Shown piece after piece: positions 1,110 to 31,188 of a stretch of DNA of 64,000 bases. The notes below the pieces were generated by a model. That model was given only the letters and a program-made list of their open reading frames with translations, was not told the origin of the DNA and ran no database searches. The DNA lies in NCBI GenBank assembly GCA_965216315.1, contig CBDCFN010000016.1, positions 576,001 through 640,000 of the forward strand. The letters run 5' to 3'. Made by a program: the position numbers and the translations under genes. The stretch is from a bacterium. GTDB taxonomy: Bacteria > UBA10199 > 2-02-FULL-50-16 > JAJFLM01. Position 1 is the first letter of the stretch; each line of letters opens with the position of its first letter.

Positions 1110-1190
1110 TGTTTGTTACAATAAAGCACCTTTATTGTTTACAAACACTTGTGCCGAGTCATTTTTTGGAATGTAAAACATAAAGGTGCT
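1108..1190 (+). promoter_or_regulatory. Intergenic element with two mutually exclusive hairpins and a Zur-box-like sequence
   Basis: 1108-1126 pairs with 1130-1149; alternatively 1125-1143 pairs with 1172-1190; TGTTACAATAAAGCA at 1114-1128. Confidence 0.5.
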
Positions 1191-1202
1191 AGGAGAATCA
1201 CA

Positions 1203-2051: not shown

Positions 2052-2057
2052 TTTTGC

Positions 2058-2091
2058 AGCCCCTGCCGCTCTAAGGATAGCGGCAGGGGCT
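2058..2091 (+). terminator. GC-rich hairpin, probable terminator of the metal module
   Basis: Perfect 13-bp stem AGCCCCTGCCGCT/AGCGGCAGGGGCT with 8-nt loop just after the stop; weak U-tail. Confidence 0.6.
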
Positions 2092-2142
2092 CATATAGCG
2101 ATTTAAATCAAAGGCCACTGATGGTATAAGAACTATCAGTCT

Positions 2143-6196: not shown

Positions 6197-7591
6197 CTAA
6201 ATCAGTCCGAATTTCTTAAGGCGATGGAAGAGGGTGCTGCGGGCGATGCCCATTTGGCGAGCGGCTGCGGCGATATTGCCATTGTTTTGTTTAAGTATCT
6301 CCGTGAGAGATGCTATTTGCTGCTGTTCGATTTGAGCACGAATCTTTGTGGGCTTAGCGATGTTCGCGATATCGATTTGTTCTGTTTGAAGAATTTGTTC
6401 TAGATTTAAGTGCAAATCATCGGCATCGATTTGGGTGCTCGGACTCAAGATCGCTGCCCGCTCGATGATGTTCTGCAACTCACGGACATTCCCAGGCCAG
6501 TCATAGCGTTTGAGCTGCTCGATTGCTGAATCTGCTAAGATAAGTTTACGTCCTATTTGTGATGCATATTTATCAAGAAAGTATTGAGCTAGTGATGGAA
6601 TGTCACCTATGCGTTCACGTAGTGGTGGTACCAAGATTGGAACAACATTGAGGCGATAATATAAATCCTCTCTAAAGGCTCCGTCTTTAACTGCTTTTTC
6701 TAGGTTTTTATTAGTTGCAGCGATAATCCGCGTGTCAATAGGGATCAGTTGGTTGCCACCTACGCGCTGGATTTCTCTTTCTTGCAATACGCGCAATAAC
6801 TTTACTTGGACGCTATCTGGAATCTCACCTAATTCATCCAGGAAAATAGTTCCACCCTGGGCTGCTTCAAATCTTCCGATGCGTGTCTTATTCGCTCCAG
6901 TGAAAGCGGCTTTTTCGTGGCCAAATAATTCGCTCTCAAGGACTGTCGTCGCGAGTGCAGCGCAATGTACCGGTATAAAGGTTTGTTTCCTACGTTGACT
7001 GTTTGCATGGACGGCGCGTGCGAGAATTTCTTTGCCGGTTCCGGTTTCTCCAAGAATGAGAACAGTAGAATCAGTAGGGGCGATCTTCTTAATTGTATCG
7101 ATAACATTTTTTAAACCGCTTGTTGCACCGATTAAACCGTCAAAATCGTAAATCTCGTGTATTTGTTCTTCCAGGGTGTCACTTCTGACTGCAAGCTCCT
7201 GAAGTTTTGCCATTCGTTCTTTGAAATTAATAAAAGCCTTTTCAATGATTGGCTTAAGCTCGCTTTTTCGCCACGGTTTAACGATATAATCATGAACGTG
7301 GCCGCGATTGATAGCATCGAGTAATAGTTGCGTTTCCGTATAGGCGGTTAGGATCATTCTGATGGAATTGGGACTGGCATCAATCAGCTTTTCACATAAC
7401 TCTATTCCGGTCATGCCTGGCATTCTTTGATCCGCAATGATCAAGGGGAATTCTTCCTGCTCTAGAATCGTGAGGGCTTCTGCTGCAGACAGACAGGTTT
7501 TGACTAAGTAATCGGACTGAAAAGCCCGCTTGAATGTATTTAGATTGGATTGTTCATCATCCACGTAAAGAATGGCCGGTCTAAAGGTCAT
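6197..7591 (-). CDS. Sigma-54-dependent response regulator (NtrC/AtoC family: REC-AAA+-Fis HTH)
   Basis: YVDDE and ADQRMPGMTG receiver motifs; GETGTGKE Walker A; ESELFGHEKAAFTGA; FLDE; WPGNVRELQN; C-terminal HTH. Confidence 0.95.
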   Translation of the reverse strand: MTFRPAILYVDDEQSNLNTFKRAFQSDYLVKTCLSAAEALTILEQEEFPLIIADQRMPGMTGIELCEKLIDASPNSIRMILTAYTETQLLLDAINRGHVHDYIVKPWRKSELKPIIEKAFINFKERMAKLQELAVRSDTLEEQIHEIYDFDGLIGATSGLKNVIDTIKKIAPTDSTVLILGETGTGKEILARAVHANSQRRKQTFIPVHCAALATTVLESELFGHEKAAFTGANKTRIGRFEAAQGGTIFLDELGEIPDSVQVKLLRVLQEREIQRVGGNQLIPIDTRIIAATNKNLEKAVKDGAFREDLYYRLNVVPILVPPLRERIGDIPSLAQYFLDKYASQIGRKLILADSAIEQLKRYDWPGNVRELQNIIERAAILSPSTQIDADDLHLNLEQILQTEQIDIANIAKPTKIRAQIEQQQIASLTEILKQNNGNIAAAARQMGIARSTLFHRLKKFGLI

Positions 7592-9237
7592 AATGAGACT
7601 CCAGGAAGAGTGATGTCAAATTCCGTGCCTTTTCCTGCTTCCGAACTAACTTCAATGCTACCATGATGACGCTTTAGAGTTTCGAGGCTCAATGCGAGAC
7701 CAAGTCCCGTCCCTTTTCCTGGGCTCTTAAGCGTGACAAAGGGGTCAAAAATACGCGGCAAAACCGCTTTCGGAATTCCACAACCAGTATCACGAATCCT
7801 GATCCTAATTCCAGAGCCATTTCGTTCGGTTAATAATTCTATTGTTCCTCTGTCTTTTATTGCATCACAAGAATTTGCAATGATATTGATAAAAACCTGG
7901 CCGAGCTCCTCCGGTACACCTTGAACAAGCGGGATATTACCATACTGACGAACTATTGAAATGCGATCACGCCATTTAGGGCTCAGAAGTTTCAGGCTCT
8001 GATCCAGAATTTGATTGATATCAATTTCCTGTAGTTTGCTTTGACCTGGATGAGAAAATTCACGAAAATTATCAAGAATAGCCTTAGCGCGTGTCGCACC
8101 TGCATCAATATCTCGCCTTAACTCATCTAAATTTTCAATCATCGCCTTGCTTTGATCGTCTTGAGTCTTTTTGACGCTTTGTTTCAGATCATCTGTGATT
8201 TCCTTGAAAGGCTCTAAATTTGAATAAATAAAAGTCATTGGATTGTTCAACTCGTGAGCCAGTCCAGCCATTAAGTTGCCGACTGCGGCCCTTTTTTCCA
8301 TCATAATCAATTGTATCTGACTTTGACGGAGCCGGCCCATGATTACGCCAAGAAAAAGGGATACTGGAAATAATAGAATTATTGGAGCGGCCAAGTTGAG
8401 AGGAACAGGAGTGTTGGTGACAAAAATTGCGATTGCTGCTGCAAGCGGGACAGTAAATGCAATGAGTTGCCCAAGTAATAAGTAGCGGGCAATTATGCGG
8501 TTAATTTCTAGCTGTGGGCGTTTAAGTGTTATGATCAGGCGCACCAACCAGAAGAGATAGGCGGCAACAACGTACAAGACCGTCGCATATTCAAATAGAA
8601 TCCAAACAGCAGGATTGTTCTTAAAGTAATAGAGGTAGGGAATGCACAAAAACGTTGAAATGACATATGGAGCGAGAAAGGCACGGCTATGTTTAATGAT
8701 AATATTCGATGTTTCTGGGAAGAAAAGTGCAAAATGTAGAATCGTTGCTGGAATGAACGAAAAAAAGCAGAGTAATAAGTAAGAATAATTGTATGTGAGG
8801 TGAAAGTCAGGGCTGAGGATGAGGTAATTACCAGCTAAGAAATGGAAAATTAATAGCGGAAGACGACTCGTTGTTATCGGCATGTAGATAAATATGATTG
8901 CGCCTAGGAACGCGAATAAGAGGCCGGATAGGCTTGGTAGCAGCACAACGAGCGTGTAATCTTGTTTTGAGAAAATTTCGGGAGATGGCGTATCGCCTGT
9001 CTGCCGGTCATGATACAGAATTCCCTTGCGGCTGTCTGTCCAGCCCGGGACATAAAATGGTCCGACAATGTTATTTTCAAAGGCCAAAAAACCCGGAAAG
9101 GGTTGACCGACTTTCTGGTAATTTTCGTGGCATGTTATCGAGAAAAGTCCAAGCGTAAAGGCTAACAGGATAAAAGTTAGGGTCGCGTTGCGGCGGCCAA
9201 CGCTCACTTTTTGAGCCATATTGGGCTTTATAAGCAA
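7588..9237 (-). CDS. Membrane-bound sensor histidine kinase (NtrB-like)
   Basis: Multiple TM helices; H-box AHELNNP; N-box QVFINIIANS; DTGCGI, FDPFVT and GTGLGL; 4-nt overlap with the regulator. Confidence 0.92.
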   Translation of the reverse strand: MLIKPNMAQKVSVGRRNATLTFILLAFTLGLFSITCHENYQKVGQPFPGFLAFENNIVGPFYVPGWTDSRKGILYHDRQTGDTPSPEIFSKQDYTLVVLLPSLSGLLFAFLGAIIFIYMPITTSRLPLLIFHFLAGNYLILSPDFHLTYNYSYLLLCFFSFIPATILHFALFFPETSNIIIKHSRAFLAPYVISTFLCIPYLYYFKNNPAVWILFEYATVLYVVAAYLFWLVRLIITLKRPQLEINRIIARYLLLGQLIAFTVPLAAAIAIFVTNTPVPLNLAAPIILLFPVSLFLGVIMGRLRQSQIQLIMMEKRAAVGNLMAGLAHELNNPMTFIYSNLEPFKEITDDLKQSVKKTQDDQSKAMIENLDELRRDIDAGATRAKAILDNFREFSHPGQSKLQEIDINQILDQSLKLLSPKWRDRISIVRQYGNIPLVQGVPEELGQVFINIIANSCDAIKDRGTIELLTERNGSGIRIRIRDTGCGIPKAVLPRIFDPFVTLKSPGKGTGLGLALSLETLKRHHGSIEVSSEAGKGTEFDITLPGVSL

Positions 9238-9284
9238 TAAGTTCTGATTTTCAAAGCCTTATCGAATGTGTTAGTCTTGCTGCC

Positions 9285-10001
9285 TTGCTGAGCTTAATAT
9301 TTGGACAAGGCCATCCCCCTGAAAAACGTAAGCGCTACCGGTATACCTTGCCGTCATCAGTGGCGGGTCGGGTTGAGTTGGAGTTGCCACTTGGTGAACG
9401 GCTAACGCTTCGGGTGGTCGATCTCAATGACGAGGCGGTATCCGGTCACTACGAGGGGGAACTCTCGATGCCGGTTGATGATTTGCCGCGGCTGAATGCG
9501 ACGCTGTATCTCGATGACTTGCAGTTTGCGTTTAAGGCGCAAATTATTCGTTATGCCAAAAATTTCCTCGTTTTTAAGTATTGTGATTATGATGAGGAGA
9601 CCTATAAGGAAGTCCTCGAATATTTCCCGGTGATATTAGGTCGGAGCTTGGAGGATCGCGGGGCGCAAAGTAAGACATCGGATTGGATACATGGTTCAAA
9701 TTATACCGATATTTTTATTCAGAACGAAGAAGACCGGAGTGGTGATATCCATAGTTTAACCTATGTTTCAGAGGATAACTATTTGCACTGGAACAGAGAA
9801 ACGGGCATGAAAACGGGGCAAGTTAAGCGAGAGACTTTTGCCGAAGGGTTAGGGTTTTCGAAGCGAGTGCAGAATCCGATTATAAAAGACGCTAGGCCTG
9901 ATGCGGGTCGAATAAAGCGCTTAGCAAGTATTGTTGCGCATTCCTCCTTGCCTGTAGAGACAAAGCAGGCCATTGCTGCAATTCTTGAGATTGGATCATG
10001 A
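9285..10001 (+). CDS. PilZ-domain-like protein
   Basis: RxxxR motif (RKRYR) followed by beta-strands and a degenerate DxSxxG (DLNDEA); ATGA overlap with MMPL copy 2; start uncertain. Confidence 0.55.
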   Translation: MLSLIFGQGHPPEKRKRYRYTLPSSVAGRVELELPLGERLTLRVVDLNDEAVSGHYEGELSMPVDDLPRLNATLYLDDLQFAFKAQIIRYAKNFLVFKYCDYDEETYKEVLEYFPVILGRSLEDRGAQSKTSDWIHGSNYTDIFIQNEEDRSGDIHSLTYVSEDNYLHWNRETGMKTGQVKRETFAEGLGFSKRVQNPIIKDARPDAGRIKRLASIVAHSSLPVETKQAIAAILEIGS

Positions 10002-12316
10002 TTAGTAAGCTCATTGATCTACTCGTCATTCATCCGAAGAAATTTCTTTTTACCGCGCTAGGGATTACCTTGTTGTTGGCGTTTTTTGTGCCCGAAATCC
10101 GCATGGTGACGTCAGTCGAGCAGCTCTACCCCTCTAAAAAGGATCCTGACCGCCAGGTATTGGAGGAGACGGAATATCTCTTTGGGGAGGACCCAAGTCT
10201 GATTGTCGCTTTGAAGACGGATGAGGTGTTTAAGAAAGATGTTTTGACTAAAGTGCGTGCCCTTACGCGTGATATAGAAAAAGTTGAACATGTGACTCGG
10301 GTCGATAGTCTGGCTACGGCCAAACGCATCATCAGTGACGAAGAGAGTATGTTGGCAGAGGATTTTTTGGAAAAAATTCCTCAGACAGAGAACGAAATCA
10401 AAGCCCTTCGCAAAGAATACTTTGATAACCCACTGTATCGTAACGCTTACGTTTCGGCCAACGGGCAATGGGCTATCTTTAATGTCGTATTAGAATCTGA
10501 AGATAAGATCGGCAATATCCCGCCAATCGTGAAGAAAATCCGTGCTCTAGCGGTTCAATATCAAGGGCCGGAACGAATATTTGTATCGGGGCGCAGTGAA
10601 CTCAATACCAGTTTCAATGATCTCATGCAAAGCGATCGCCGGCGGCTAATCCCGATTTTGATTGTGGTGATGCTGATCGTCCTTTATTTGAATTTTAGGT
10701 CGTTGGTTGGCTTCGCGCTTCCCTTAGTCAGTGTTTTGATAGGTGTTGTGTGGACATTCGGTGTTATGAGCCTTTTTGGAATCCCAATCTCCATCTTAAC
10801 TTCGACCTTGCCGTCCATTTTGATTGCGATCGGATGTTCTTACGCTATCTATTTTCTCGCGACCTATTTCACGCTCTGGTCTGAAGATCAGGATCCTGTC
10901 GATCATTTAAAGAGGGTGCTGAATAAAACTCTCTTGGCGGTTATCTTCTGCGCTTTTACTACGATTGTCGGGTTTTTTGGGCTCTCTTTAAATGATATCA
11001 ACTTGATCAAGCAGATGGGAGTTGCGGCGGTCATCGGGATATCAAGCCTGTTGGCGCTGACGGCTTTTGTCTTGCCGTGTTTTATCCTTGTAATCAGTGC
11101 ACTCCAGCAGAGCCGTCTGCGTCGGCAGCGGCCCATTCGCATCGCAGACAAGAAGCAGCAGCTTCACACGTTTCCAAGACGTTTCTTGAATCATTCGGGT
11201 AAATTGTTGTGCGGGTGGGCCATCGTCTTTATGATATGCCTGTTCTTTATTCCGCAGCTGAAAATTGAGAACGACCCGAGCACTTTTTTCAAGAAAGATT
11301 CAAGTACCTGGACTAATTTGCAATCATTGGTCAATGAATTGAATATGTACGGTCGATTCAAAATCGTTTTGAGCGCTAAGCAAGAAGACTATTTTAAAAA
11401 CCCCGAGGCATTGAAGCAGATCGAACTGTTGGGAACGAAGATTCAGGCTCTCGAAGAAACAGGCAAGACAATGTCGTTGGCGGATTTTGTGAAAACCATC
11501 AATAAGTCATTCAATGAACATAAACCGGAGTTTGAAGCGATTCCCCCCACCGAGCAGGAAGTCGCCCAGTACTTATTGCTCTATTCACTCTCCGGTGACG
11601 ACGAGAATCTTTATAGGTATGTCACTGAAGACTATAAAACGACTCAAATTGATATTAATGCAGGCGTGACGAGTAGTATCGATAGCTTGACCCTCGCTAA
11701 CAAAATTGAGGCTGACTGCAATGAGGTTTTTGGTGATGATGTCACCTGTCGCGCATCCGGTGCTTCGCTCATACTGGCGAAAAGCGCTCGTTATATTGCT
11801 TTGGGAGTTCTGAAGGGGTTTAGCCTTGCACTGTTTATTATTCTCATTTTGATGTTTGTGCTGTTCCGATCGATTCGGATTGGGCTGATCGCGATGATTC
11901 CAAATGTTGTTCCCACTTCGCTGCTGCTGAGTTTTATGGCGATTGCAGGCATTCCCTTGAACGTGGGTACGTCGATTATTTTGACGATCGCACTCGGTAT
12001 TGCTGTCGATGATACCTTGCATTTTTTCGTTCATTATTATCAGGAACTTAAACAGACGAACCATTTTTTGATTCAGTCCCAGACGGGAATTCGTATTACG
12101 GAAGATCAGAAGTGGGCGGTCGTCACAACCTGGCGGCACCTTTATAAGGCCCTGACGACCACAACGGCGACGATCGTGTGCGGTTTTCTCGTGTTGACTC
12201 TTTCGGATCTGACGCCTTTGGCTCTCTTTGGGTCTTTGACCGCCTTGACGATGTTTTTTGCCTTGCTCACCGATTTAACGCTGACGCCCGCCTTGATTAT
12301 GAAGACGAAGTTCTAG
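9998..12316 (+). CDS. MMPL/RND-superfamily lipid transporter, copy 2
   Basis: 772 aa, collinear with copy 1 (QLYPSKK, RVDSLATA, AMIPNV, GIAVDDTLHF). Confidence 0.9.
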   Translation: MISKLIDLLVIHPKKFLFTALGITLLLAFFVPEIRMVTSVEQLYPSKKDPDRQVLEETEYLFGEDPSLIVALKTDEVFKKDVLTKVRALTRDIEKVEHVTRVDSLATAKRIISDEESMLAEDFLEKIPQTENEIKALRKEYFDNPLYRNAYVSANGQWAIFNVVLESEDKIGNIPPIVKKIRALAVQYQGPERIFVSGRSELNTSFNDLMQSDRRRLIPILIVVMLIVLYLNFRSLVGFALPLVSVLIGVVWTFGVMSLFGIPISILTSTLPSILIAIGCSYAIYFLATYFTLWSEDQDPVDHLKRVLNKTLLAVIFCAFTTIVGFFGLSLNDINLIKQMGVAAVIGISSLLALTAFVLPCFILVISALQQSRLRRQRPIRIADKKQQLHTFPRRFLNHSGKLLCGWAIVFMICLFFIPQLKIENDPSTFFKKDSSTWTNLQSLVNELNMYGRFKIVLSAKQEDYFKNPEALKQIELLGTKIQALEETGKTMSLADFVKTINKSFNEHKPEFEAIPPTEQEVAQYLLLYSLSGDDENLYRYVTEDYKTTQIDINAGVTSSIDSLTLANKIEADCNEVFGDDVTCRASGASLILAKSARYIALGVLKGFSLALFIILILMFVLFRSIRIGLIAMIPNVVPTSLLLSFMAIAGIPLNVGTSIILTIALGIAVDDTLHFFVHYYQELKQTNHFLIQSQTGIRITEDQKWAVVTTWRHLYKALTTTTATIVCGFLVLTLSDLTPLALFGSLTALTMFFALLTDLTLTPALIMKTKF

Positions 12317-12466
12317 GAGTCAATATCTTGACTGTTAGGGCTCTCAATATGATAAAAAATAGTGTAGACTAAGCGGAGCGAGTGTCATTTATTCATATAA
12401 AACAACAGCTTACTTTTTTTGGCTACTGGTACGTTTATTGCACTAGCTAGAATGGTGGATTCATTT

Positions 12467-13906
12467 ATGTCGGGCAGAAACATCAGCATTGGGGGGATTT
12501 TGCTTGCCGCCCTGTTGGTAGGGGCGCTTTCAGGGCCGGTGCAGGCGCAGCCGAGTGCCGCGGATGAGCCGACGGAAGCGCCAGCTCCACCAACGATGCC
12601 CCCGCCAACGACACCCCCACTGCCGCCCCTGCCGGACGATCCCGCCGATAGTTCGACGCCACCGCCTCCCGGCGAAACAGGGTCTGAGTTGCCCAGCGAC
12701 CCTCTCGGGGAGCCTGAGGTCGGTGAAGTGGAAGAGCCGGCCGTAAAGTATAAAGTGGGTTATATTTGCAGCCCGGCGGCAGGCAATGTTGAGAATCAAA
12801 GTAACCTTTGTGTCGTGGATTCCGATGGAAAAAATCCACGTGTCATGGTGGTGGGCGGCATCCTTGCCGCGCCGGTTTGGTCTTTAGATGGCCAGTTCAT
12901 CTATTTTTCTTATGATAAGGGTCCCGCCAATCTAGAAGCGTTACCGGGGATGCCTCCGGTCAGCATTCCCCATAATTTTGATGTTCATTATCTGCGTTGG
13001 AGTGATGGAGCGCATCTGCAATTAACGGATAGTCCTGCGCCCGAATTCTTGATTCAAGATCTTCCTGCCGGAAATGAATTGCTGTTGACACGTCGTCGTT
13101 TTGTAAACGAAACCTCACAGCTGGGAGTTGAGAAAAAGAAGCTGGAGATCAAATTAAAGCTAATAGATTTTCCGTGTGTTTTTTCCATGACTGAACAGAA
13201 TTGCGAGAGTTTAGGCGCAACGGCAGGGGAGTTAGCGAACTCTGATTGCCCACCCTTGGCGCTCCCATTGCCTCTAGGCTTGTCTCCATTTGGACGCTGG
13301 GCGACCCAATCGGCAATGTTGTGTGATGAAGGGGTAAGGAAGGAAGGCTTTTTTCTCGTTGATACTGAAAGTGATAAGAGGATTCCGGTTTTGCATAAGG
13401 ACCTTAGTGCATGTCGCGTTATAGATTTTCACGGCGGCATTGCCGTCAATGACGATGGATCGCCCATGGTGATTCCTTTTAATACGAAATCTCTTAAAAT
13501 AGATAGCTGTGTCTTCTACTTGTCCCCGGAAAGGCAACGCATGGCTTACATCAACGTTAACGGTCAAGTTGGTGTGATTGATTTGAATAGCCGTCAACTC
13601 CAGTACATGACAGTCGAGGCGCCGGTTCAAGGCATTGATGCGCTGGCGTGGTCACCCGGTGGCAATGATTTGTTGGCCTTCAAGCGGGAAGGCGGGGGGC
13701 CGATGTATAGAATTTCGGCGCTAATCGTCGACGATGTCAGTTTTCTGGGTTACGGGAGTCAACCTGCCTGGAGTCCGATTCCGCTCGCGACGTATACCTC
13801 CGAAGCGACGGTTGCAGCGGCCGAAACTATTGAGCTCGACAATGTTCCCGCCGAGAAGACGCAAATCATCGCGCAGCCTGCCGCTGGATGTACCCTCATC
13901 CGCTAA
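12467..13906 (+). CDS. Secreted TolB/PD40-like beta-propeller protein with Pro-rich N-terminal arm
   Basis: Signal peptide ending VQA (likely ATG 12467); Pro-rich segment; repeats PVWSLDG, LSPFG, LSPER, AWSPGG, PAWSP; ends AAGCTLIR. Confidence 0.7.
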   Translation: MSGRNISIGGILLAALLVGALSGPVQAQPSAADEPTEAPAPPTMPPPTTPPLPPLPDDPADSSTPPPPGETGSELPSDPLGEPEVGEVEEPAVKYKVGYICSPAAGNVENQSNLCVVDSDGKNPRVMVVGGILAAPVWSLDGQFIYFSYDKGPANLEALPGMPPVSIPHNFDVHYLRWSDGAHLQLTDSPAPEFLIQDLPAGNELLLTRRRFVNETSQLGVEKKKLEIKLKLIDFPCVFSMTEQNCESLGATAGELANSDCPPLALPLPLGLSPFGRWATQSAMLCDEGVRKEGFFLVDTESDKRIPVLHKDLSACRVIDFHGGIAVNDDGSPMVIPFNTKSLKIDSCVFYLSPERQRMAYINVNGQVGVIDLNSRQLQYMTVEAPVQGIDALAWSPGGNDLLAFKREGGGPMYRISALIVDDVSFLGYGSQPAWSPIPLATYTSEATVAAAETIELDNVPAEKTQIIAQPAAGCTLIR

Positions 13907-13981
13907 GCAACTGAAATCTTTCCCTTATTCATGTTTTCACAAGTGGCGAGCTGTGATATTGTGTAGCGACCAAACAGCGTT

Positions 13982-15715
13982 GTGAAATCACTTATTATCA
14001 TCATTATGTTGCTCGGCTTGGCGGTAGGTGCCAGTGCCGCTGAGGAAGAAACGGTCTCGGAGGAGATCCCCCCGAATTGGAAGAAGTGGGAGACTCCCGA
14101 CGGGGCGGTTTATTATCAGCGGCCCGATGGGACAACGACGTGGGAAAATCCACTCAATCCGCCCGAGCTAGGTCCGGGAGTTGATGACAAGCAGGGTCCC
14201 GTTCCAAGCCAAACTGTCAGTGATGACGGGGCGCCCGAACCAGTTGAGGCAGAGCCGGCTCCTGTTGAGGCAACAACCGTTGGTGCGCGGCAGCCGAGAA
14301 AGAGCGGGGCGTTTATGGAGGGAAGCGCCGAAGCGGCTCCTGAGGTATCGGTGTTACCGGATGGTTGGAAAGAGTGGCGCACCGAAGACGGCAAACGCTA
14401 CTACGAGAAGCCGGATGGAACGACGACATGGGACCGCCCCAAAATTGTCTGGGAAAAGCCCTCGGCAGACGGAACACTGACGCTCACGCGCTATCATACT
14501 GAAAACATTAATTGGGCAAATGATTTTCGCTTTGGGGGGTCGCTAGAATATCGATTTTCCGGGTTTTTTAAAAATGATGTGAATAGTGATGAGCGTCTCT
14601 GGAATGATGTCATTTTTCAATTGTTTACCGATGTTCGCTGGAATGATCAGGTTCGCACTTATGGCAAGATGGAGTTGACAGGATATCTCCCGCAATCGGA
14701 TCCGCGTATTCGTATTATTCCGGAAGAAGCTTTTCTGGATCTTTATTTAGGTCCCGTTGATATTCGGGCGGGTTATCAGATTTATTCCTGGGGTGTGGCT
14801 GATCTGTATAATCCGACGGATAAGCTGAACCCGCGTGATTATATAGACATTCTCAATTACGAAAAAGAAGGTATCTTAAGTTTGAAGGTCGGTTATTCTT
14901 TTAGCAATTGGACGCTCGAAGGCATTTGGATTCCTTTGCCGGAGGAGAGTTATCTCCCTCAACCCGGCTGGCGCTTTTTTGAAATGCCGGGCGCCTCCCA
15001 GGGACTGCCGCCGGCAATCGTGTCGGACCTAATAGCCTTGCGGCCCGGTAAAAGTATTCGAAATCCGCAGTTTGCAGCCCGCTTGCGAGGGACTGCGGGG
15101 CGTTTTGATCTGGGTTTCAGCTATTTCTATGGCTTGGCGACAGTGCCGCAGCGTGAGGTGAGTGTAGGCACATTCAACCCTGTCGATAATACGGTGACGG
15201 TAACAGTGACCGAAGTATTTCCACGCGAGCATACCGTTGGGGCGAACATGGCAACCACGATCAAAAAACTCGGACTCCATTTGGAAACGGCTGCTGTTTT
15301 TCCTAAGGATACCGGAAGAGACATCGGCTCCGCTGATCAATTTCGCTTTAACTATGTTGTCGGCGGGAATTATACGTGGAGCGATGTCATTTCAGACCAT
15401 GATATAAGATTTTTCCTCGATTTTACTCACGAGATTCATCGTGATGAAAAAAGCACTAACCTTTCCCGAATTTTTCAGTTATCATTGCTCTCACGTCTGG
15501 AATATATCGTCTCAGACGACCTTAAAATCACTCTATCAGGGGCCTATAATTTCGATGATCGCGATTATATTATTCGGCCTCGTATCGAGTGGGGTTTTTA
15601 TGAGGGCTTTACATTGACCGCCGGTGCCGATTTCCTGGGTGGGCCGAGCGGAAGCTTTTTTGACCTGTTTGAAGAGGATGACCGGGGCTATGCCTGGCTA
15701 AAGTACGAATTTTAG
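13982..15715 (+). CDS. Outer-membrane beta-barrel (DUF1302-like) with two N-terminal WW domains
   Basis: Signal peptide; WW-like repeats at aa 29-57 and 125-153; EAFLD..DIRAGYQIYSWGVAD..NPTDKLNP barrel motif; C-terminal WLKYEF. Confidence 0.8.
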   Translation: MKSLIIIIMLLGLAVGASAAEEETVSEEIPPNWKKWETPDGAVYYQRPDGTTTWENPLNPPELGPGVDDKQGPVPSQTVSDDGAPEPVEAEPAPVEATTVGARQPRKSGAFMEGSAEAAPEVSVLPDGWKEWRTEDGKRYYEKPDGTTTWDRPKIVWEKPSADGTLTLTRYHTENINWANDFRFGGSLEYRFSGFFKNDVNSDERLWNDVIFQLFTDVRWNDQVRTYGKMELTGYLPQSDPRIRIIPEEAFLDLYLGPVDIRAGYQIYSWGVADLYNPTDKLNPRDYIDILNYEKEGILSLKVGYSFSNWTLEGIWIPLPEESYLPQPGWRFFEMPGASQGLPPAIVSDLIALRPGKSIRNPQFAARLRGTAGRFDLGFSYFYGLATVPQREVSVGTFNPVDNTVTVTVTEVFPREHTVGANMATTIKKLGLHLETAAVFPKDTGRDIGSADQFRFNYVVGGNYTWSDVISDHDIRFFLDFTHEIHRDEKSTNLSRIFQLSLLSRLEYIVSDDLKITLSGAYNFDDRDYIIRPRIEWGFYEGFTLTAGADFLGGPSGSFFDLFEEDDRGYAWLKYEF

Positions 15716-15864
15716 AGGATCAATGAAAATGACCACCTGCATCGTTGCCTCAAAATTCAGTCATTGCGACGTACTTAAAGTACGACTCATTCCTGAATTT
15801 ATCAGCGCCTTGCATCTGGAACATTTTCATTAATCCTTATACTGTGAATTGCAAGGAGAGTAGA

Positions 15865-16695
15865 ATGTATCGATATGTAGGTTATACCGGGATTATCACG
15901 TTCACGTTTCTGCTAATAGCGAGTAGCGGGCATGCACAAACGGCGAGCGAAGCGCCGGCGGGAACCGCTCAACCGACGGCTCCGGCTCAACCGCAGTTAA
16001 CGGCTCGCCAGATGATGCAGAAATTTGTCGATCATTATGATAATCGTGATGAGGCGACTAAGATGCAAATGGTGCTGATCTCCAAGACAGGTTCACAACG
16101 GAATCGACGCATGAGTATCAAACGTCGCACTGATGAAAAAGATCTTGAAAAGATAATGATCCGTTTCCATGAACCCAATGATATCCGCGGGACCTCTTTG
16201 CTGACTTGGGAACAGGCGGCTGGTAAGGATGATTTGCAATGGATTTATCTGCCGGCACTGAAAAAGACCAAGCAGATTTCAGGTGGCGCCAAAAAAGATG
16301 ATTTCGTCGGCAGTGACTTTACCTATGAGGATCTGCGCCCCGAAAAATTGGATGACTTTAATTACACGTTAGTCGGAGCTCAGGATGGCCGCGTCATTAT
16401 TGATGCAACGCCACGTATCAGTGATTCCGGTTATAGCCGCCGGCGCGTCTGGCTGCGGCAGGACAATTATTTTGCAGTGGGTATCAAGTATTACGACCAT
16501 AAAGGCCAATTCCTCAAAAAAATGAGCGTTTCGGGTTTGGTGAATGTCGCCGGTGGGCGCGTACGTGCCAATAAAGTGAGGATGGAAAACGTTCAAAATG
16601 GCCATGCGACTGAATTGAATGTCCATAGCCGTCAGTTAGACACGGGCTTGAAAGAAGCCGCGTTTACCAAGCGGGAATTGGAAAAGGGCGTCTAG
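15865..16695 (+). CDS. Outer-membrane lipoprotein-sorting protein (LolA-like carrier)
   Basis: AAGGAG RBS before ATG 15865; signal peptide; FHEPNDIRGTSLL, DDLQWIYLPALKK and FVGSDFTYEDL motifs typical of LolA-like partners of MMPL transporters. Confidence 0.85.
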   Translation: MYRYVGYTGIITFTFLLIASSGHAQTASEAPAGTAQPTAPAQPQLTARQMMQKFVDHYDNRDEATKMQMVLISKTGSQRNRRMSIKRRTDEKDLEKIMIRFHEPNDIRGTSLLTWEQAAGKDDLQWIYLPALKKTKQISGGAKKDDFVGSDFTYEDLRPEKLDDFNYTLVGAQDGRVIIDATPRISDSGYSRRRVWLRQDNYFAVGIKYYDHKGQFLKKMSVSGLVNVAGGRVRANKVRMENVQNGHATELNVHSRQLDTGLKEAAFTKRELEKGV

Positions 16696-16696
16696 T

Positions 16697-17866
16697 TCAA
16701 TCAGCGGTAAAGTAATTCTGACGACCGCGCGAGTAAAGCACTTCAGAGATCATATATTTCTGTATCTCGGTGGTTCCTTCAATAATAGAAAGGATTTTTG
16801 AATCGTTGACTAGCTTGGCGATTGGATACTCGAGGGAAATACCGGCTCCCCCCATAATTTGAGCTGCTTTTAGAGTGACTTCTTCGGCTGTTGATGTTGC
16901 ATAGGCTTTAGCCAGTGATGCCTCGTAGCGATAATCCTGGCCGAGAGAGGCTTTCCATGCCGCCCGCCAAGCTGCAAGTCTTGATGCCTCTGTCGCCATT
17001 TGCATTTGCGCAATGTATTGGCGAATGACCGGATGATCCCCAATGGCTTTTCCAGCCGAGTAACGAGTTCTTGAATAATCAATGCATTCATCAATGGCAC
17101 GTTGTTGTATGCCCGTAGCTATGGCAGCCGTTCCGGTCCTGCCACGCGAGAGAGAACGCATGGCTACCTGATAGCCGTTGCCCTCTTTGTCTAGAAGGTT
17201 TTCACGCGGGATGAAGACATCTTCAAAAGTGAGACCGGATGTATCGGCGGCTTTAAGGCCAAGCTTTTTTTCAGGGCGCGCTTTGATGACTCCATCCAGG
17301 TTGCCGGGAACGATAAAGGCTGATAGCTCAGAAATTTGTTGAGACCCCTTAGGGTAGGCGAAAACAATATAGATGCCGGCACGATTTGCATTGGATATCC
17401 ACGCTTTCTGACCATTGATGACAAAGCCATCATTCTTTGTTTCGTAATGGGTTTTTAAGCCGCCAAGGTCGGAGCCGGTTTGGGGCTCGGTTAAGGCAAA
17501 CGAAATCAGCATTCGCTCTTCACATAATAAGGTAAGCCACTTCTTTTTTTGTTCTGCCGTGCCGAAATAGTCAATAGGTGCGGAAGCCAGATTATTAGTC
17601 AGTATGGCGAGTGCTATACCTGCACAAGCATGTCCCAGGATTTCTGCAATAAGGACGGACTCAGCAGGTCCCATGTTACCTCCACCATACTCATCTGAAA
17701 TTCCCAAGTTAACGATACCTAACTCTTGAGCTTTATCGATAATATCTTCAGGAAAAGTATGGCTTTCATCATATTCTGCTGCTTTGGGTAGGATTTCGTT
17801 TGAGGCAAAATCTTTTGCCATATCCACGATCAAGCGCTGGTCTTCAGTCAAAGAAAAATCAATCAT
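16697..17866 (-). CDS. Acyl-CoA/acyl-ACP dehydrogenase
   Basis: FALTEPQTGSD, NGQKAWISN, KLGLKA and IIEGTTEIQ; start probably 17866 behind AAGGAG, overlapping the upstream stop. Confidence 0.92.
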   Translation of the reverse strand: MIDFSLTEDQRLIVDMAKDFASNEILPKAAEYDESHTFPEDIIDKAQELGIVNLGISDEYGGGNMGPAESVLIAEILGHACAGIALAILTNNLASAPIDYFGTAEQKKKWLTLLCEERMLISFALTEPQTGSDLGGLKTHYETKNDGFVINGQKAWISNANRAGIYIVFAYPKGSQQISELSAFIVPGNLDGVIKARPEKKLGLKAADTSGLTFEDVFIPRENLLDKEGNGYQVAMRSLSRGRTGTAAIATGIQQRAIDECIDYSRTRYSAGKAIGDHPVIRQYIAQMQMATEASRLAAWRAAWKASLGQDYRYEASLAKAYATSTAEEVTLKAAQIMGGAGISLEYPIAKLVNDSKILSIIEGTTEIQKYMISEVLYSRGRQNYFTAD

Positions 17867-20663
17867 AAACATGCTCCTTTTCGCCATCACTGCTGTGTTG
17901 TTTTAGGCGGCGCAGGGACATTCCCGGTGCAAGTCTCGGGGTGGCTCCCAGTCTAATAATTTCCTGCTCGATCAGAGATGTGATGAACTCATGCTTGGGT
18001 TTTCCATTCGGTGAATCGATATTTCTTGGCGATATAGGGCTCCCAAATATGATTTTAACTTTGGACGGACGGGGAATGTACTGGTCGCGATTGAGAACAT
18101 TAAAGCTGCCTTTAATATAGATAGGAATAATCGGAGAACCGGTTGCTTCGGCCAGAATGCCAACGCCATTCTTGAAACGATTTAGTTTTCCGTCCATTGA
18201 CGGTGTTCCTTCAGGATGAATGAATAAGATATTTCCTGAATCCAGGACTTTTTTACCTGCCTGGAGTGCGGGGAGAAAATTCCCTTCGCGATCAATTGGA
18301 ATCATCTGGGCCAACCAGGCAAACAGGCCACGGTCAAAGCGCTGCAGATGCTCTTTTTTTCCGATAACATAAAAAAACTTTCGAAGTTGTGGAGCCAGCT
18401 TGCACAGAACAAAAAGGGGGTCCATATAGCTTTCATGGTTTGAGGCTAAGATGAAAGGTGGTTTCGCCGGAAGGTGCTCTATACCATCGCATTCCAGTCG
18501 AAACATTATGCGACTGATAAGTGACAGAGTTGAAATGAACCGCTGACGAAAATGCCCGGTAGAATTGTTATCAAGATGGACCCGCTGCTTTATTTCGCGA
18601 TCGATTACGGGAGAGATGGATTGGTCTAGTACCTCGTTCCAACATGTGGAATTGTTATTATCCATGCCTCTCCTGTAGTCCCCTTTTGATAGATCTATTT
18701 CGTTTTGAGAGCAGAATTCATTGATAGCGATGATGCAATCCCGAATCGAACGCATTGAGTAGACAATATCTTTAGATACCGGCTGTCCGATGATTTCTTC
18801 GATATTCACCGCTAATTCCGCCATCGACAATGAGTCAAAACCGAGGTCCATAAATAGATGTGACTCCAGCTCAAATTGGATGGGTCCCCCTTTTACGCGA
18901 GCCACAGCTTCCTTAAGGAGTTTGCCTGCACCCGACGAGAGCAGCTTTTCGCCGGATATATTAATTTCGACATTCGTTTTCTGACCGTTTCGATCGATGA
19001 CATTCTGTCTCAGCTCAAATTTCTTGATTTTTCGAGTCGTGGTCCGGGGTAGGGACTGATACTGAATTTCATATCGGTTGATTCGGCACCAGCCGGGCAG
19101 CTGTTCAGATCTGTCGATAATTGTGTTCTTGATAATCATGTCAACGTCGTTCAAGCAGTTCGTCTTGAAGTAGCTCATATTGGGGACAATGATGGCGTAT
19201 ATTTCTTCCGCTTTTTCGCGAGTACTTTTCGGGACTCCGAAGACGGCGATCTCTTCAATGCAGTCGGATTCGAGATAAAATTCTTCTATTTCGTCGGGGA
19301 AAACATTTTTTCCGGAAGGAAGTACGATGACGTCTTTAGATCTTCCGCAGATACTGAGATAGTTCTCTTTATCTAGCGACCCAATATCTCCTGTCAGAAA
19401 ATAGCCATCGCTCGTAAAAGTCGAGCCGTTATTATTTAGTTGATAGTAGCCATTAAAAACAGGCGGACCCTTAACGGCAATTTCACCCGCGCCATTATCA
19501 TCGGGTGAAACGATTTTAACGGATATGCCGTTAAGTCTGCGTCCGACTGTGCCGGGACGAGCATGATGAGGAAAATTACAGAAAATCACCGGTGCTGTTT
19601 CAGTCAGGCCGTAGCCCTCGAATATGGGGAGTCCTAAAGTGTTGAAAGTACGGATCACGTCTTCGTCGAGCGCGGCAGCACCCGAAATGATACGACGAAT
19701 ATTCCCGCCCAGCGCATCATGGATTTTTTTAAAGAGGCATTTTTTTATTCCGTAGAGATGAGCACCGTTGTCGCTGATATATCGAGACGATTTCAGGGTA
19801 TGAAATATGAGCTGGGCCGAGTTTGGAGCAAAATTAATCTGCTCGACTATGCCTCTGTAGAGCTGATTGAGGATAGCTGGGACAAATATAAGCGTTGTAA
19901 GTCGGTTCTTTTGAATGCATTCTAATAGGTCGGCTTTATTCAGGCTGCTGAGGATGAAGATATCGGCACCAACTTCCAGCGAATTCAGTAGGCAAGCGGA
20001 AAACGAGTAGGCATGATTCAGAGGGAGTAGCATCAGTGTTTTATCATCTTCAGATAATCTCATATCGTGGGCAATCGAAAGCTGAGAGAGAAAATTAGTA
20101 TGCTTTAATAATACTCCCTTTGGGTTGGATGTCGTGCCCGAAGTATAAATGAGTGAAGCGCTGTTTTTAGGGGAGGATCGGATGACTTTGAAATCAGAGT
20201 CATGTCTTTCCTCGATCCAGGAAAAAGGAATGCATTTACGCAAGTAATTGATGTCGGCGTCGAGAACGACGTATTTGCTGACTTTTTCGTCAAGCTCAGG
20301 AGAGCGGATGTTGGGTAAGATATTCCGCTCAGTGAATAAAAGCCTGGCTTTAGAATTGCCGATGATATTATTGATTTCGTGTGCTGATAAGTGGGGATCA
20401 ATTGTCACAGCGCAGGCGCCGACATTGATAATGCCTATATATATTGCGATCCATTCAATTCGATTGGTGGACATGAGAGCGACATTTTCGCCCCTTCTGA
20501 CATTATGATTCGCTAAGAAACGGCCTACTTTAAGGCTCAATTCATATACTTCCCGAAAAGAACTCTCGGTGTGCTGAGCCGCGCCCTGATGGTGAATAGA
20601 GGATAAATTATCCACTGCTTTGGCTTGGAAAAAATCGGTGAGAGATTGGTAACTGGCTGCCAT
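17859..20663 (-). CDS. Tri-domain long-chain acyl-AMP/CoA ligase - ACP - PlsC-type acyltransferase
   Basis: YTSGTTSNPKG, GYGLTE and TGDIG adenylation motifs; DLGFDSL carrier serine; NHESYMD (HxxxxD) and HPEGT acyltransferase motifs. Confidence 0.9.
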   Translation of the reverse strand: MAASYQSLTDFFQAKAVDNLSSIHHQGAAQHTESSFREVYELSLKVGRFLANHNVRRGENVALMSTNRIEWIAIYIGIINVGACAVTIDPHLSAHEINNIIGNSKARLLFTERNILPNIRSPELDEKVSKYVVLDADINYLRKCIPFSWIEERHDSDFKVIRSSPKNSASLIYTSGTTSNPKGVLLKHTNFLSQLSIAHDMRLSEDDKTLMLLPLNHAYSFSACLLNSLEVGADIFILSSLNKADLLECIQKNRLTTLIFVPAILNQLYRGIVEQINFAPNSAQLIFHTLKSSRYISDNGAHLYGIKKCLFKKIHDALGGNIRRIISGAAALDEDVIRTFNTLGLPIFEGYGLTETAPVIFCNFPHHARPGTVGRRLNGISVKIVSPDDNGAGEIAVKGPPVFNGYYQLNNNGSTFTSDGYFLTGDIGSLDKENYLSICGRSKDVIVLPSGKNVFPDEIEEFYLESDCIEEIAVFGVPKSTREKAEEIYAIIVPNMSYFKTNCLNDVDMIIKNTIIDRSEQLPGWCRINRYEIQYQSLPRTTTRKIKKFELRQNVIDRNGQKTNVEINISGEKLLSSGAGKLLKEAVARVKGGPIQFELESHLFMDLGFDSLSMAELAVNIEEIIGQPVSKDIVYSMRSIRDCIIAINEFCSQNEIDLSKGDYRRGMDNNNSTCWNEVLDQSISPVIDREIKQRVHLDNNSTGHFRQRFISTLSLISRIMFRLECDGIEHLPAKPPFILASNHESYMDPLFVLCKLAPQLRKFFYVIGKKEHLQRFDRGLFAWLAQMIPIDREGNFLPALQAGKKVLDSGNILFIHPEGTPSMDGKLNRFKNGVGILAEATGSPIIPIYIKGSFNVLNRDQYIPRPSKVKIIFGSPISPRNIDSPNGKPKHEFITSLIEQEIIRLGATPRLAPGMSLRRLKQHSSDGEKEHVYD

Positions 20664-20764
20664 TTAACCTACAGGTGATTCAATTTCAGCAAAAATAATA
20701 TCTATGCTCATGATAACAGAAGCTCATAATTGCATGTTAGATTATTTGTATGCACCGGATTAAA

Positions 20765-20786
20765 ACTGTTTACTCGTGTAAACAGT
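20765..20786. promoter_or_regulatory. Inverted-repeat operator/enhancer candidate in the divergent intergenic region
   Basis: ACTGTTTAC-tcgt-GTAAACAGT, perfect 9-bp arms; half-site-like copies near 20862 and 20923. Confidence 0.55.
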
Positions 20787-20944
20787 GTCATTATCTCTAC
20801 ATAGAGTGGGTACATGATGACCTCAAGACTGAGATGTAAATTGTATCCAACCGAATTGCGTTAACAGTTTTTGAGCAAACAATATTTTATTAACCAGCTG
20901 AAAAATAATGAAGATGCCTTTAACTGTTTACATGAATTGCGCTT

Positions 20945-20960
20945 AGGCATGTAATTTGCA
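20945..20960 (+). promoter_or_regulatory. Sigma-54 -24/-12 promoter candidate for the NRPS operon
   Basis: AGGCATG-TAAT-TTGCA with correct GG/GC spacing, 60 nt before GTG 21021; IHF-like TAACCAGCTGAAAA at 20891. Confidence 0.6.
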
Positions 20961-21020
20961 GTTCAGCCTCTCAGATTATTTTTTGTTTATGATAATCCAG
21001 GTTAAGAGGAGACGCAGATA

Positions 21021-24000
21021 GTGGTTCTAAAGAAGTGGGAAGAAAGTTTATGCACGCTCCTCAAAAAGAAAGCACAAGAGCAGCAGGACGAAATAGCATT
21101 CACCTATATAAAGAATGACGGATCAGGCGCTGAAGAGATGACATACGCGGAGCTTGATGAAGGGGCCCGCGCAATCGCAGCCTATCTTGCCCCGATGAAC
21201 GTTATCGGGAAGCCGATCGTCACCCTTCAAATTAATAGTTTAGAGGCTATTTACGCCGTATTTGGGATTCTTTATGCGGGTGGGATTGCCGTGCCGGCTT
21301 ATCCGCCGGACCCGGCGCGAATCAGCCATACGCTGCCTCAATTGCTGTCAACTATCAGCGACAGCCAAGCAAAACTCATCCTGACCTCAACGTTCCTTCT
21401 GGAAGCAGCCGGCCCATTGCTCGAGGCGATGCCTGAGCTGAAAGCACTCCAATGGGTCGCAGTCGATGAGATTGTCGGGCAGACCCACAGCGATAACGAG
21501 CTTCCTCTCACCCAGCCGGAGACGGTGGCATTTATTCATTATACGTCGGGCTCGACGGGAGAGCCTAAGGGCGTTGTGACGACGCATAAGAATCAGATAC
21601 GGGCGACCCGAGGAATGGTGGAAGTCAATGACTACGATAAAGATACTGTCGTCCTCTCTTGGTTGCCGCTGCAGCATAGTGCCGGGTTTATGGCAAGCGT
21701 ATTGACTCCTATTATGTCGGGTGGAAGGGGTGTCATCATGTCGCCGTTGATGGCGCTTGAGGATCCCAAAAAATGGTTGCAAGCAATCTCGCAATACAAG
21801 GCCAATGTTAGCGGTGGCCCGAACTTCATTTTTGATCTTTGTGTGAAAAAAGTAAGTGATCAGGACATAGACCAGTTGGATTTACGTTCATGGCATCACG
21901 CCATCGTGGCAACAGAAGTCGTGCGTTCCGAGACACTCCGTGCCTTTGCTTCAAAGTTTGCATCATGTGGCTTCGAGGAGGGTTCATTCGACCCTAGCTA
22001 TGGACTAACGGAAATGCCGTTGGTGACGCTGAATGGCATGGCTGATATCGAGACCCGCATTGATTCTGGAATTGTCAGTTGTGGAAGACCGGCCCCTGGA
22101 GTTGAGCTGGAGATAGTGAACCCGGAAACGATGACGATCTGTAAGGCCGGAGAAGTAGGTGAAATATGGATCGGCGGTCCATCACTGGCTCAAGGGTATT
22201 GGAAAAAGCCAGATGAAACGGACCTGCTGTTTAAATCGTTTACAAAGGATACACTGAGAGGCCCATTTTTTAAGACAGGTGATTTAGGCTATCTGTCGGA
22301 AGACGAGCTATTTATTACGGGTCGGATCAAAGAGTTGATCATCATCCGAGGAAAAAATCACTATCCAATCGATATCGAACGGAGTCTTCAAGAGAACATA
22401 CCGGAATGTGGCGCTGGTTGTATTGCAGCATTCGGAATGGAAGCAAGTGGAGCTGAACAGCTCGTGATTGTTCAAGAGATATCCTCGAGTATGTCTAAAA
22501 AAGATCAGCTTGAATTGATTCAATCGATTAGAGAGGTCACGGGCCGTGAACACCAAGTAACTCCCAATGAAATCGGTTTGGTGGCATTGGGGAGTATTCC
22601 GCGAACGAGAAATGGCAAGGTTCAGAGAACTCTATGTAAGCAGCAATATATTTCAAACGAATTGGAACTTATCCATGATTCATCCGATGGGAGTGAGTTT
22701 GAGCAACGGCAGCCGAATACGTTTGTAGCCCCTCAAAGCGCGTGGGAAAAAGTGTTAGAGGAAATGTGGCGCACATCGCTCAGTCCGGATCAGGATTCAA
22801 TAGGAATACATGATAATTTCTTTCAGCTGGGTGGCGATAGCTTGAGCGCCATATCGATTGTGGGAGACTTATCGCGACTAACAGGCCGTATTCTTGATGA
22901 GAATTTAGTCCATCTTCACCCGACAATTCAAGACCTGGCGGCCCATTTGGAAACGTTGATCGGTGAAGTGCCAGCGGATGATGATGTAGCCGCGAGAGAT
23001 GAAACGTACAGGCAGCATATTAGATCGGACCAGTCAGAGTTTCCGCTCGAACCGCTTCAACAGTCTTTCTACATCAATAATATGTTGGGAGATGTTCTCT
23101 GCTATGTCTGCGGAGACCTGCGCCTTAAAAGTGAACTTAAACCCGAGGAGTTCCAACGTGTCATTCGTGAGGCGATGGAAATCATGCATTACCGTCATCC
23201 GACGCTCCGCTTGGCCTACCGCTTGGATGACGATGGGCCACGTCAGTACATTAAGGAGGACTATCCCGAGTTTACCGTTAACTGTATAGACCTCTCTAGT
23301 TACTCTTTAAGCGATGTTGAAAGAGGCATTAAAATCGAGTTTGAACGGTTGAACTGTTATCAATTCGATACGGAAGCGGGTGAAAACTTCGTTGCAACAC
23401 TTCTTTATACGGGGAGTGAAAATTACCGCCTGATATTCAGTATAAACCATCTCGGCATTGATGGTTTCAGCTTACCTTTCTTTTTCGACGACTTTCTGGG
23501 TGAGGTGTTTCCTTCTGTTCTTGCACGAGAACCCGTGGAAAGAATTCCACAGACCAGTATGAGCTTTAAGGATTATTTAGAAATCAAATTTGCACTTAAA
23601 GACAATGATAAAAGGCAATATGATATTGATTTCTGGTTGCAAAAATTGGAGCGTCTCGAGGCATTTCCTCCTCTGCCTGAAAATCACGAAAAAACAGCTG
23701 ATATATCTTTTGGCATGCACTGGCTGGATGTTGACCGGTTAATAGTGGAGAAACTGAGTCATATTGCTCGGATGCATGAGACAACATTGTTTTCCCTTCT
23801 GTTTGCAACGTTCTTCAAGTTAGTGGCCCAGTGGAGTTTGGTTGGAAATATTTCGGTTAATACGCCGATCGTCAATCGGCGGCCCTATGCGAAGGATGTG
23901 AATAATATATTGGGTTGTTTTACGGACATCCTGCCTGTGCACGTTGAAGAGGCTCTGAGCAAGCCGGTCATTGAGCTAGCAAAAGATATTCAAGGACAGT

Positions 24001-25973: not shown

Positions 25974-25982
25974 GAGGTCTCA

Positions 25983-27476: not shown

Positions 27477-27487
27477 AAGGTGAATTT

Positions 27488-31097: not shown

Positions 31098-31188
31098 GAC
31101 AATGGGGCCAGTTTGCGCATTTTGTCGCCGATTGATGGAATGAGTTGTGCTTTAGTTAAGCTCATTGAAGAAAAAGTGTTTACACGAG

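Follow-up and report, generated by a model that had tools for sequence, protein, structure and literature searches.

Two WW-type modules on an outer-membrane barrel protein of an uncultured bacterium, and their candidate proline-rich ligands

Can a WW domain, a textbook module of eukaryotic signaling, serve a bacterium outside its cytoplasm? The question is raised by a stretch of 64,000 nucleotides (nt) from an uncultured bacterium (assembly GCA_965216315.1, contig CBDCFN010000016.1, positions 576,001 to 640,000 of the forward strand), called the window here, whose own numbering is used for its coordinates. The window contains the gene of a barrel protein with two WW-like modules, directly downstream of the gene of a putative propeller protein with a proline-rich tail. 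An earlier note on this DNA had proposed that the two WW domains bind a PPLPPLP motif in that tail and so dock the propeller onto an outer-membrane lipid channel. We examined both proteins, their relatives and their genomic surroundings with sequence searches and structure predictions.

Two WW-type modules precede a barrel domain

The barrel gene (13982-15715, GTG start; this gene and the other members of its operon are all on the + strand) encodes a 577-amino-acid (aa) WW-WW-DUF1302 protein with a putative signal peptide at aa 1-19. The first module, WW1, spans aa 29-57 (14066-14152) and the second, WW2, aa 125-153 (14354-14440). Their W-x20-W-x2-P cores lie at aa 33-57 (nt 14078-14152) and aa 129-153 (nt 14366-14440), and a Pro/Ala/Glu-rich linker separates the modules (aa 58-124, 14153-14353). 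Both carry the WW signature LPxGW...G.xYY...TTTW..P, with the Trp pair spaced by 20 residues. The signature residues (W33, Y44Y45, W54 and P57 in WW1; W129, Y140Y141, W150 and P153 in WW2) are invariant in the four modules of this genome (G000) and of its relative G001, across which 13 of the 35 module positions do not vary. As judged from sequence, the residues that would line the proline groove, the strand-2 Tyr and the second Trp, are present in both modules.

Searches for relatives pointed to the WW family. Using aa 21-163 as a phmmer query against all PDB sequences, the YAP1 tandem came first (E 7.9e-8), and dozens of single solved WW domains gave full-length alignments with E between 1e-3 and 1e-1. 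NEDD4L, the WW prototype, GAS7, Yorkie, Prp40, SMURF2, KIBRA and MAGI were among the matches; for the prototype (1e0m), GAS7, NEDD4L and Yorkie (E 0.001-0.01) the alignment covered 30-33 residues, from LPxGW through WxxP. WW2 aligned over its full length with both WW domains of YAP1. WW1 alone retrieved the same WW families, including WW domains of the FE65 family (2ysc_A, E 0.001; 2ho2_A, E 0.0028), so that the nearest solved sequences are mixed, FE65 for WW1 and YAP and NEDD4 for WW2. The Pfam WW model covered each module completely (profile positions 1-31 or 2-31) and scored the single modules at 16.4 and 12.0 bits (E 0.0091 for WW1), the N-terminal fragment at 16.5 bits and, in a six-frame search, the two modules at 16.2 and 12.9 bits. 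The ESM Atlas gave no usable match for the WW region.

Two Sec16-like proteins matched the WW region only, P0058 (2478 aa) with E 6.8e-30 over 17 stretches and P0089 (2038 aa) with E 1.8e-26 over 10 stretches. They contain 16 and 12 Pfam WW domains, respectively, and a Sec16 domain, and it is from these Pfam domains alone that they are labeled eukaryote-type. A repeated motif, PDGTTTW[ED]RP, is common to their repeats and the bacterial modules. Because the nearest sequence relatives include these protist-type Sec16 WW repeats, the modules may have been acquired from a eukaryote.

Structure prediction was in line with these matches. For aa 20-175, AlphaFold2 (4-row alignment) modeled two three-stranded sheets with a predicted local distance difference test score (pLDDT) of 72-84, joined by a disordered linker (pLDDT 31-44). 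With the full-length protein and a 100-row alignment, the pLDDT rose to 88-89 for WW1 and 94-96 for WW2. All top Foldseek matches of the modules in the PDB were WW structures, and single WW domains superposed with a root-mean-square deviation of 0.9-1.7 Å over 30-35 columns at 32-46% identity (for example 7lp2_A, 1.1 Å over 32 columns at 44% identity; 4n7h_A, 1.2 Å; 5dzd_B, 0.9 Å). Both modules are thus predicted to adopt the three-stranded antiparallel WW fold.

The modules are also conserved. Both are kept in all four full-length WW barrels that we found, and a fifth, truncated barrel retains the last one. The linker between them is about 12 residues long in two relatives versus 67 here. In a ~93%-identical relative, covered by one sequencing run at a depth of about 3, WW1 has two conservative changes (I29V and D40E) and the covered part of WW2 (nt 14395-14440) a single synonymous one, and the linker shows an 18-nt deletion and three non-synonymous changes, which hints at constraint on the modules and none on the linker. 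Taken together, the sequence matches, the predicted fold and the conservation argue strongly, except for Pfam's cut-off, that both modules are genuine WW-type domains, and the reading of two WW domains in the gene next to the propeller's was right.

The remainder of the protein (aa 164-577, 14471-15715) matches the DUF1302 family (PF06980, E 3.5e-6; 26.8 bits, over the cut-off of 23.2). AlphaFold2 predicted a closed, large beta-barrel with a pLDDT mostly above 90, whose nearest solved folds in Foldseek were porins, AlgE and OprD-type channels (E from 6.4e-11; TM-scores of 0.36-0.42 by query and 0.5-0.6 by target). Read by eye, the protein starts with a positively charged residue that is followed by a hydrophobic stretch and a site of the AxA type (...GASA followed by AEEE). 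The WW modules would lie at the periplasmic N-terminus of the barrel.

Several other DUF1302-like barrels (P0013, P0022, P0024, P0047, P0053, P0060 and others) have N-terminal extensions of 400-900 residues, one with Big_2 and PKD domains and most without a Pfam family. This barrel family apparently tolerates diverse additions at the N-terminus, the WW tandem among them. We looked for fusions of a propeller to the barrel among the long DUF1302-like proteins, and found a propeller family in none of the 23 scanned.

Distribution of the WW barrels

The modules are rare. A six-frame search of this 2.96-Mb genome with the expression W-x19-22-W-x2-P plus an aromatic pair gave eight matches, only two of which resemble WW domains, and these share one open reading frame (ORF). 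By this search, by the module profile and by the six-frame Pfam search, they are the only WW modules of the genome. Among 93 genomes of the phylum, this one included, the profile found two modules here, two in G001 and none that convinced in the other 91; one further match (E 0.0019 over 22 positions) was not counted. A search for the propeller body picked out the same two of the 93 genomes.

The barrel had five matches besides itself at E <=0.001 in a set of 5.8 billion proteins. Three of them, 53-58% identical, keep both WW modules; P0005 (59% identical) and the distant P0006 have none. The barrel has 2118 relatives at E <=0.001, and among the best 150 of these 2118 representatives WW modules and barrel are joined only in the P0004 cluster. 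Of the scans for further orthologous loci, one of genome contigs with a single protein gave none. A metagenome scan returned three loci, of which only one (L016) is close; it supplies the fifth WW barrel, cut inside the last WW module, so that the gene upstream is missing. A scan with the WW profile restricted to PDGTTTW[DE] returned one true WW locus (L024, on a contig as long as that of G001) and two partial matches of 15-17 residues. The architecture is known from five sequences of uncultured bacteria.

A proline-rich tail on the neighboring putative propeller protein

The gene upstream of the barrel gene (12419-13906, 495 aa from a TTG) probably starts at M17 (12467); the database version has 479 aa. 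Matches to Pfam PD40 (E 0.0014) and, across 46 residues, to TIGR02800 TolB (E 1.2e-5) hint at a PD40/TolB-like beta-propeller, as do its look-alikes in the ESM Atlas, which are PD40/TolB clusters (0.95, by language model). Pfam returned no BNR family at E <=0.1, and a profile of the two propeller orthologs had no solved relative below E 0.03. In the set of 5.8 billion proteins the propeller protein retrieved only itself, under a saturated word filter that missed even the ortholog of G001. By eye, its N-terminus has the same three elements as that of the barrel protein, the AxA-type site being ...GPVQA followed by QP. Both proteins are therefore likely to be exported, as the earlier note had supposed.

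The mature protein would begin with an acidic, Pro-rich tail (aa 43-110, 12545-12748), APAPPTMPPPTTPPLPPLPDD...TPPPP, with 33% Pro across residues 44-110. The PPLPPLP motif lies in it exactly where the earlier note had placed it (aa 66-72, 12614-12634), and PPT, PPPT and PPPP occur as well, the proline runs being grouped in two clusters. Only one of the 2714 ORFs of at least 150 aa in the genome contains PPLPPLP, and 16 contain PPLP. With 16 Pro in its best window of 30 residues, the tail ranks first among the 568 ORFs in which an N-terminal signal or transmembrane segment was crudely detected; the runner-up has 11.

The ortholog in G001 is 36% identical. It shares an acidic, Pro-rich tail of similar length, the sequence of which is not kept, and its best 30-residue window holds 8 Pro. 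Contigs assembled from sequencing runs did not cover the tail in any divergent strain. The short matches at 12535-12631 had 6-7 mismatches per ~37 nt and continued unlike the window, and are therefore low-complexity hits from other organisms.

At their other end, both propeller proteins have a conserved Cys 4-5 residues before the C-terminus, after a variable Ala/Thr-rich stretch (...AGCTLIR, 13880-13906 in the window; ...GGCGRVL, 6540-6563 of the G001 locus L013).

What the WW modules might hold

It seems to us evenly balanced whether the ligand of the WW modules is a proline-rich segment from within their own machine, namely the propeller tail here and the barrels' own linkers in the relatives. 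In a small uncultured lineage, the barrel would have gained two WW domains at its periplasmic N-terminus, on flexible linkers. A proline-rich peptide would lie, in extended conformation, in a groove made up of the conserved strand-2 Tyr and the second Trp, and this binding would tie a proline-rich segment of the machine to the periplasmic face of the barrel. In this genome the polyproline tail of the propeller would be the best candidate ligand, in trans: the WW gene lies 75 nt downstream of the gene that bears the most Pro-dense exported segment of the genome. In the relatives, the candidates would be the polyproline runs after the WW modules of the barrels, in cis or between protomers. Such a run directly follows a WW module in four of the five WW barrels (RPPPPGG in G001; RPPPRPG; RPPTPTPTPEP together with QPPPPSG; SPPPPAAG), which makes these runs alternative candidates to the PPLP of the propeller; in their place the barrel of the window has only NPLNPPELGPG. 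As the candidate ligand differs between genomes, the ligand would not be a fixed PPLP motif. We also put forward, tentatively and as the more doubtful proposal, that the WW pair captures polyproline, from the propeller tail or the barrels' own linkers, and thereby assembles or gates a trans-envelope transporter, the ligand having moved from cis in the relatives to trans here.

Several observations weigh against a polyproline ligand within the machine. In G001 both WW modules are kept and the propeller tail contains neither PPLP nor any PP dipeptide, which excludes a conserved polyproline ligand in trans for that genome; in its operon, polyproline occurs only as PPPPG, between the two WW modules of the barrel itself. 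This is the pattern, PPLP lost and WW kept, that the earlier note had named as speaking against its tether, and it was found in one of one orthologs with readable context. Readable context comes from two genomes, both of one family, so that the co-occurrence of propeller and WW modules amounts to a single evolutionary event. The first rank of the tail is a post hoc statistic obtained with a crude signal-peptide filter, and Pro-rich linkers are common among the exported proteins of this genome, at least 7 Pro in 30 residues being reached by 26 of the 568 ORFs. The barrel of P0005, a close relative lacking WW modules, implies that the modules are dispensable for the core job of the barrel. The loop between strands 2 and 3 lacks one residue relative to both WW domains of YAP1 and reads E/Q-K/R-P in the bacterial modules versus L/I-N-H in YAP1, where the His belongs to the PPxY pocket; with a loop so short and altered, the ligand class cannot be read from the sequence. 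Finally, no score with the Pfam WW model (PF00397) reached its cut-off of 26.9 bits. Co-folding of the WW region with propeller residues 43-112 gave a score of 0.02, which weighs neither way on binding.

The more specific proposal of the earlier note, in which the modules are group II WW domains and the tandem PPLP of the neighboring propeller is their dedicated, conserved ligand, docking the propeller on the barrel, appears improbable. Parts of it stood up: PPLPPLP is unique among the ORFs searched, the genes are adjacent, and both components occur in the same two of 93 genomes. PPLPPLP and the PPPT/PPPP runs also make up two clusters that match the two WW modules in number, and WW1 resembles domains of the FE65 family, which bind PPLP. 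What did not stand is the conservation of the ligand, given the tail of G001. The best matches of WW2, moreover, are PPxY-type WW domains (YAP1, NEDD4L), so the sequence does not single out group II. Alternatively, the tail could be an extended spacer in which PPLP arose by compositional drift, the WW modules binding another proline-rich protein or a non-peptide partner; we regard this as possible but somewhat unlikely. It would fit the two propeller orthologs, whose tails keep their length and their acidic, Pro-rich character and not their sequence, as well as the many exported proteins of the genome with PPxPP or PPPP runs, several of them with signal peptides, and the fast evolution of the inter-WW linker (from ~12 to 67 residues, with the 18-nt deletion in the close relative at low depth). 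However, it leaves unexplained why the most Pro-dense exported segment adjoins the only WW protein of the genome and why propeller and WW modules occur in the same lineage, and no other candidate partner was identified.

That the modules are not WW domains at all, and instead chance look-alikes or isolated blade hairpins of PQQ-type propellers, we consider highly improbable. The shortfall in Pfam would agree with it, as would the sub-threshold matches (E <=1) that the same model gives in 9 of 14 control genomes, and for WW1 the first phmmer matches are designed propellers of the PQQ-like kind (Cake, Scone), through a repeated 17-residue match. The scores of Cake and Scone, however, are sums of ~5-bit matches to this hairpin, limited to strands 2-3, and on this ground the PQQ-like identity was rejected; solved WW domains align over their full 30-33 residues, including LPxGW and WxxP. 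The predicted fold and the Foldseek matches also agree with WW, and the modules are set apart by a disordered linker, lack a propeller context and are conserved across five proteins. We retain the reading of a proline-rich ligand from within the machine, with the even balance stated above.

Organization of the operon and its surroundings

The barrel and propeller genes belong to a row of genes with the same order in G001. At its head is a conserved protein of 238 aa (9285-10001), present in the list of ORFs, whose ortholog in G001 has 243 aa and the same position (1898-2629 of L013). No family was found for it in Pfam or NCBIfam; its N-terminus had given an impression of PilZ, for which Pfam offered no support at E <=10. 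Its stop overlaps by 4 nt the start of an inner-membrane RND transporter of the MMPL/HAE3 type (9998-12316, 772 aa; PF03176, E 2.8e-40; TIGR00921 HAE3, E 2.1e-66, under that model's cut-off). Downstream of the propeller and barrel genes follows a LolA-like/DUF1329-like protein of the periplasmic lipid-carrier type (15745-16695, likely start M41 at 15865; PF17131 LolA_like, E 3.3e-51; PF07044 DUF1329, E 7.7e-13). Consensus scans for promoters and terminators over 9000-17200, in which overall counts were at shuffle level, found neither kind of site in the intergenic gaps. The row from the RND transporter through the propeller and barrel to the LolA-like protein would form one operon.

Genes for lipid or lipopeptide biosynthesis flank this operon (16697-31932). 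They include an AMP-binding-acyl carrier protein (ACP)-acyltransferase fusion (17859-20663, - strand), a non-ribosomal peptide synthetase-like protein of 1650 aa with two AMP-binding domains, an ACP and a condensation domain (21021-25973), an ACP-thioester reductase (25983-27476), two acyl-CoA dehydrogenases, a Ser/Thr kinase and a phosphopantetheinyl transferase. Because of the LolA-like and MMPL parts and the adjacent lipid biosynthesis genes, we infer that the cargo of the transporter is a lipid, for which this cluster is the likely source. The best explanation of the region is a four-part envelope transport machine inside a lipid/lipopeptide biosynthesis cluster. The outer-membrane lipid channel of the earlier note is borne out to this extent, as a DUF1302-kind beta-barrel in an operon that would transport lipid.

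Elsewhere in the window, two ORFs without a Pfam family, of 282 and 300 aa, come before a second MMPL-type RND gene (2143-4461, 772 aa; PF03176, E 4.8e-24), and these genes (261-4461) may make up another export system of simpler build. Just upstream of the operon and divergent from it are the genes of a histidine kinase and a sigma-54 response regulator (6197-9237, - strand), candidate regulators of it.

Pairs of barrel and LolA-like genes also occur in distant relatives that have neither WW modules nor the propeller (G003; L017). In G003, from a sister order (7020-11563 of L014), the WW-less barrel and the LolA-like protein stand beside a multi-pass membrane protein of 784 aa, which takes the place of the RND pump and the propeller and by eye resembles an ABC permease of the FtsX type. 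It may be that the outer-membrane pair works with more than one kind of inner-membrane engine. In L016 (1314-7298), the WW barrel is followed by LolA-like, thioesterase-like and reductase-like genes and a protein of 1099 aa that, by eye, combines a ketoreductase, an ACP and an aminotransferase of the 8-amino-7-oxononanoate-synthase kind, again a lipid-building neighborhood.

Comparison with known systems

The modules resemble eukaryotic WW domains (YAP1, NEDD4L, ITCH and the FE65 family; PF00397) in their signature, in full-length alignments, in a predicted sheet that superposes at about 1 Å and in their tandem arrangement. Unlike these, they are bacterial, lie behind a Sec-type signal peptide, are fused to an outer-membrane barrel and score below the Pfam cut-off. 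Among the papers listed by our literature searches, supplements excluded, none was found to describe a system of the bacterial envelope based on canonical WW domains, in keeping with the earlier note, which knew of none, and a bacterial, exported, barrel-fused WW tandem appears to be undescribed. If the modules do bind periplasmic proline-rich tails, this would show how transporters of the DUF1302/DUF1329/propeller/RND kind hold together. It would also be a natural case of a modular peptide-recognition domain put to new use where there is neither ATP nor phosphorylation, in what would be the first WW-polyproline adaptor system of the bacterial cell envelope.

The only relevant find for WW, periplasm and proline-rich together was the WW-like EL4 C-terminal motif of the Mycobacterium tuberculosis protein mannosyltransferase (MtPMT), which recognizes proline-rich peptides (PMC12331936, 2025). 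That article states that WW domains have so far been characterized only in eukaryotic proteins, and it introduces this loop, WW-like and degenerate, as the first case in prokaryotes with a function. Both are bacterial elements of the WW type on the extracytoplasmic side, peptide recognition being a feature of MtPMT. As described there, the MtPMT element is a degenerate hairpin within the loop of a membrane enzyme, with the second Trp replaced by Leu, whereas the present protein has two autonomous modules on flexible linkers, each with both Trp and the terminal Pro.

Among barrels, the top Foldseek match was OmpM1 of Veillonella parvula (8bym), likewise a porin-like barrel behind a periplasmic N-terminal extension; its entry is titled 'outer membrane attachment porin', and the extension attaches the barrel to another component of the envelope. 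Identity to our barrel is only 12% and the TM-scores are modest (0.36 and 0.59). We take the OmpM1 extension to be an SLH domain that binds peptidoglycan.

The operon as a whole is a variant of the DUF1302/DUF1329/propeller/RND cluster described in two preprints. They report co-fitness of DUF1302, DUF1329, BNR-propeller and COG1033 RND genes in Shewanella, Pseudomonas and Kangiella (10.1101/072470; 10.1101/2020.07.04.188060); export of a cell-wall component was proposed in the first (10.1101/072470), and an esterase alternative is discussed in the later one (10.1101/2020.07.04.188060). The same four kinds of components are found here, and export of an envelope lipid or cell-wall component would be the shared proposal. 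In contrast to the cluster described there, the propeller gives PD40/TolB-like signals and not those of a BNR/Ycf48-type (COG4447) propeller, and the present operon combines two WW modules on the barrel with a polyproline tail on the propeller in the setting of a lipid/lipopeptide cluster.

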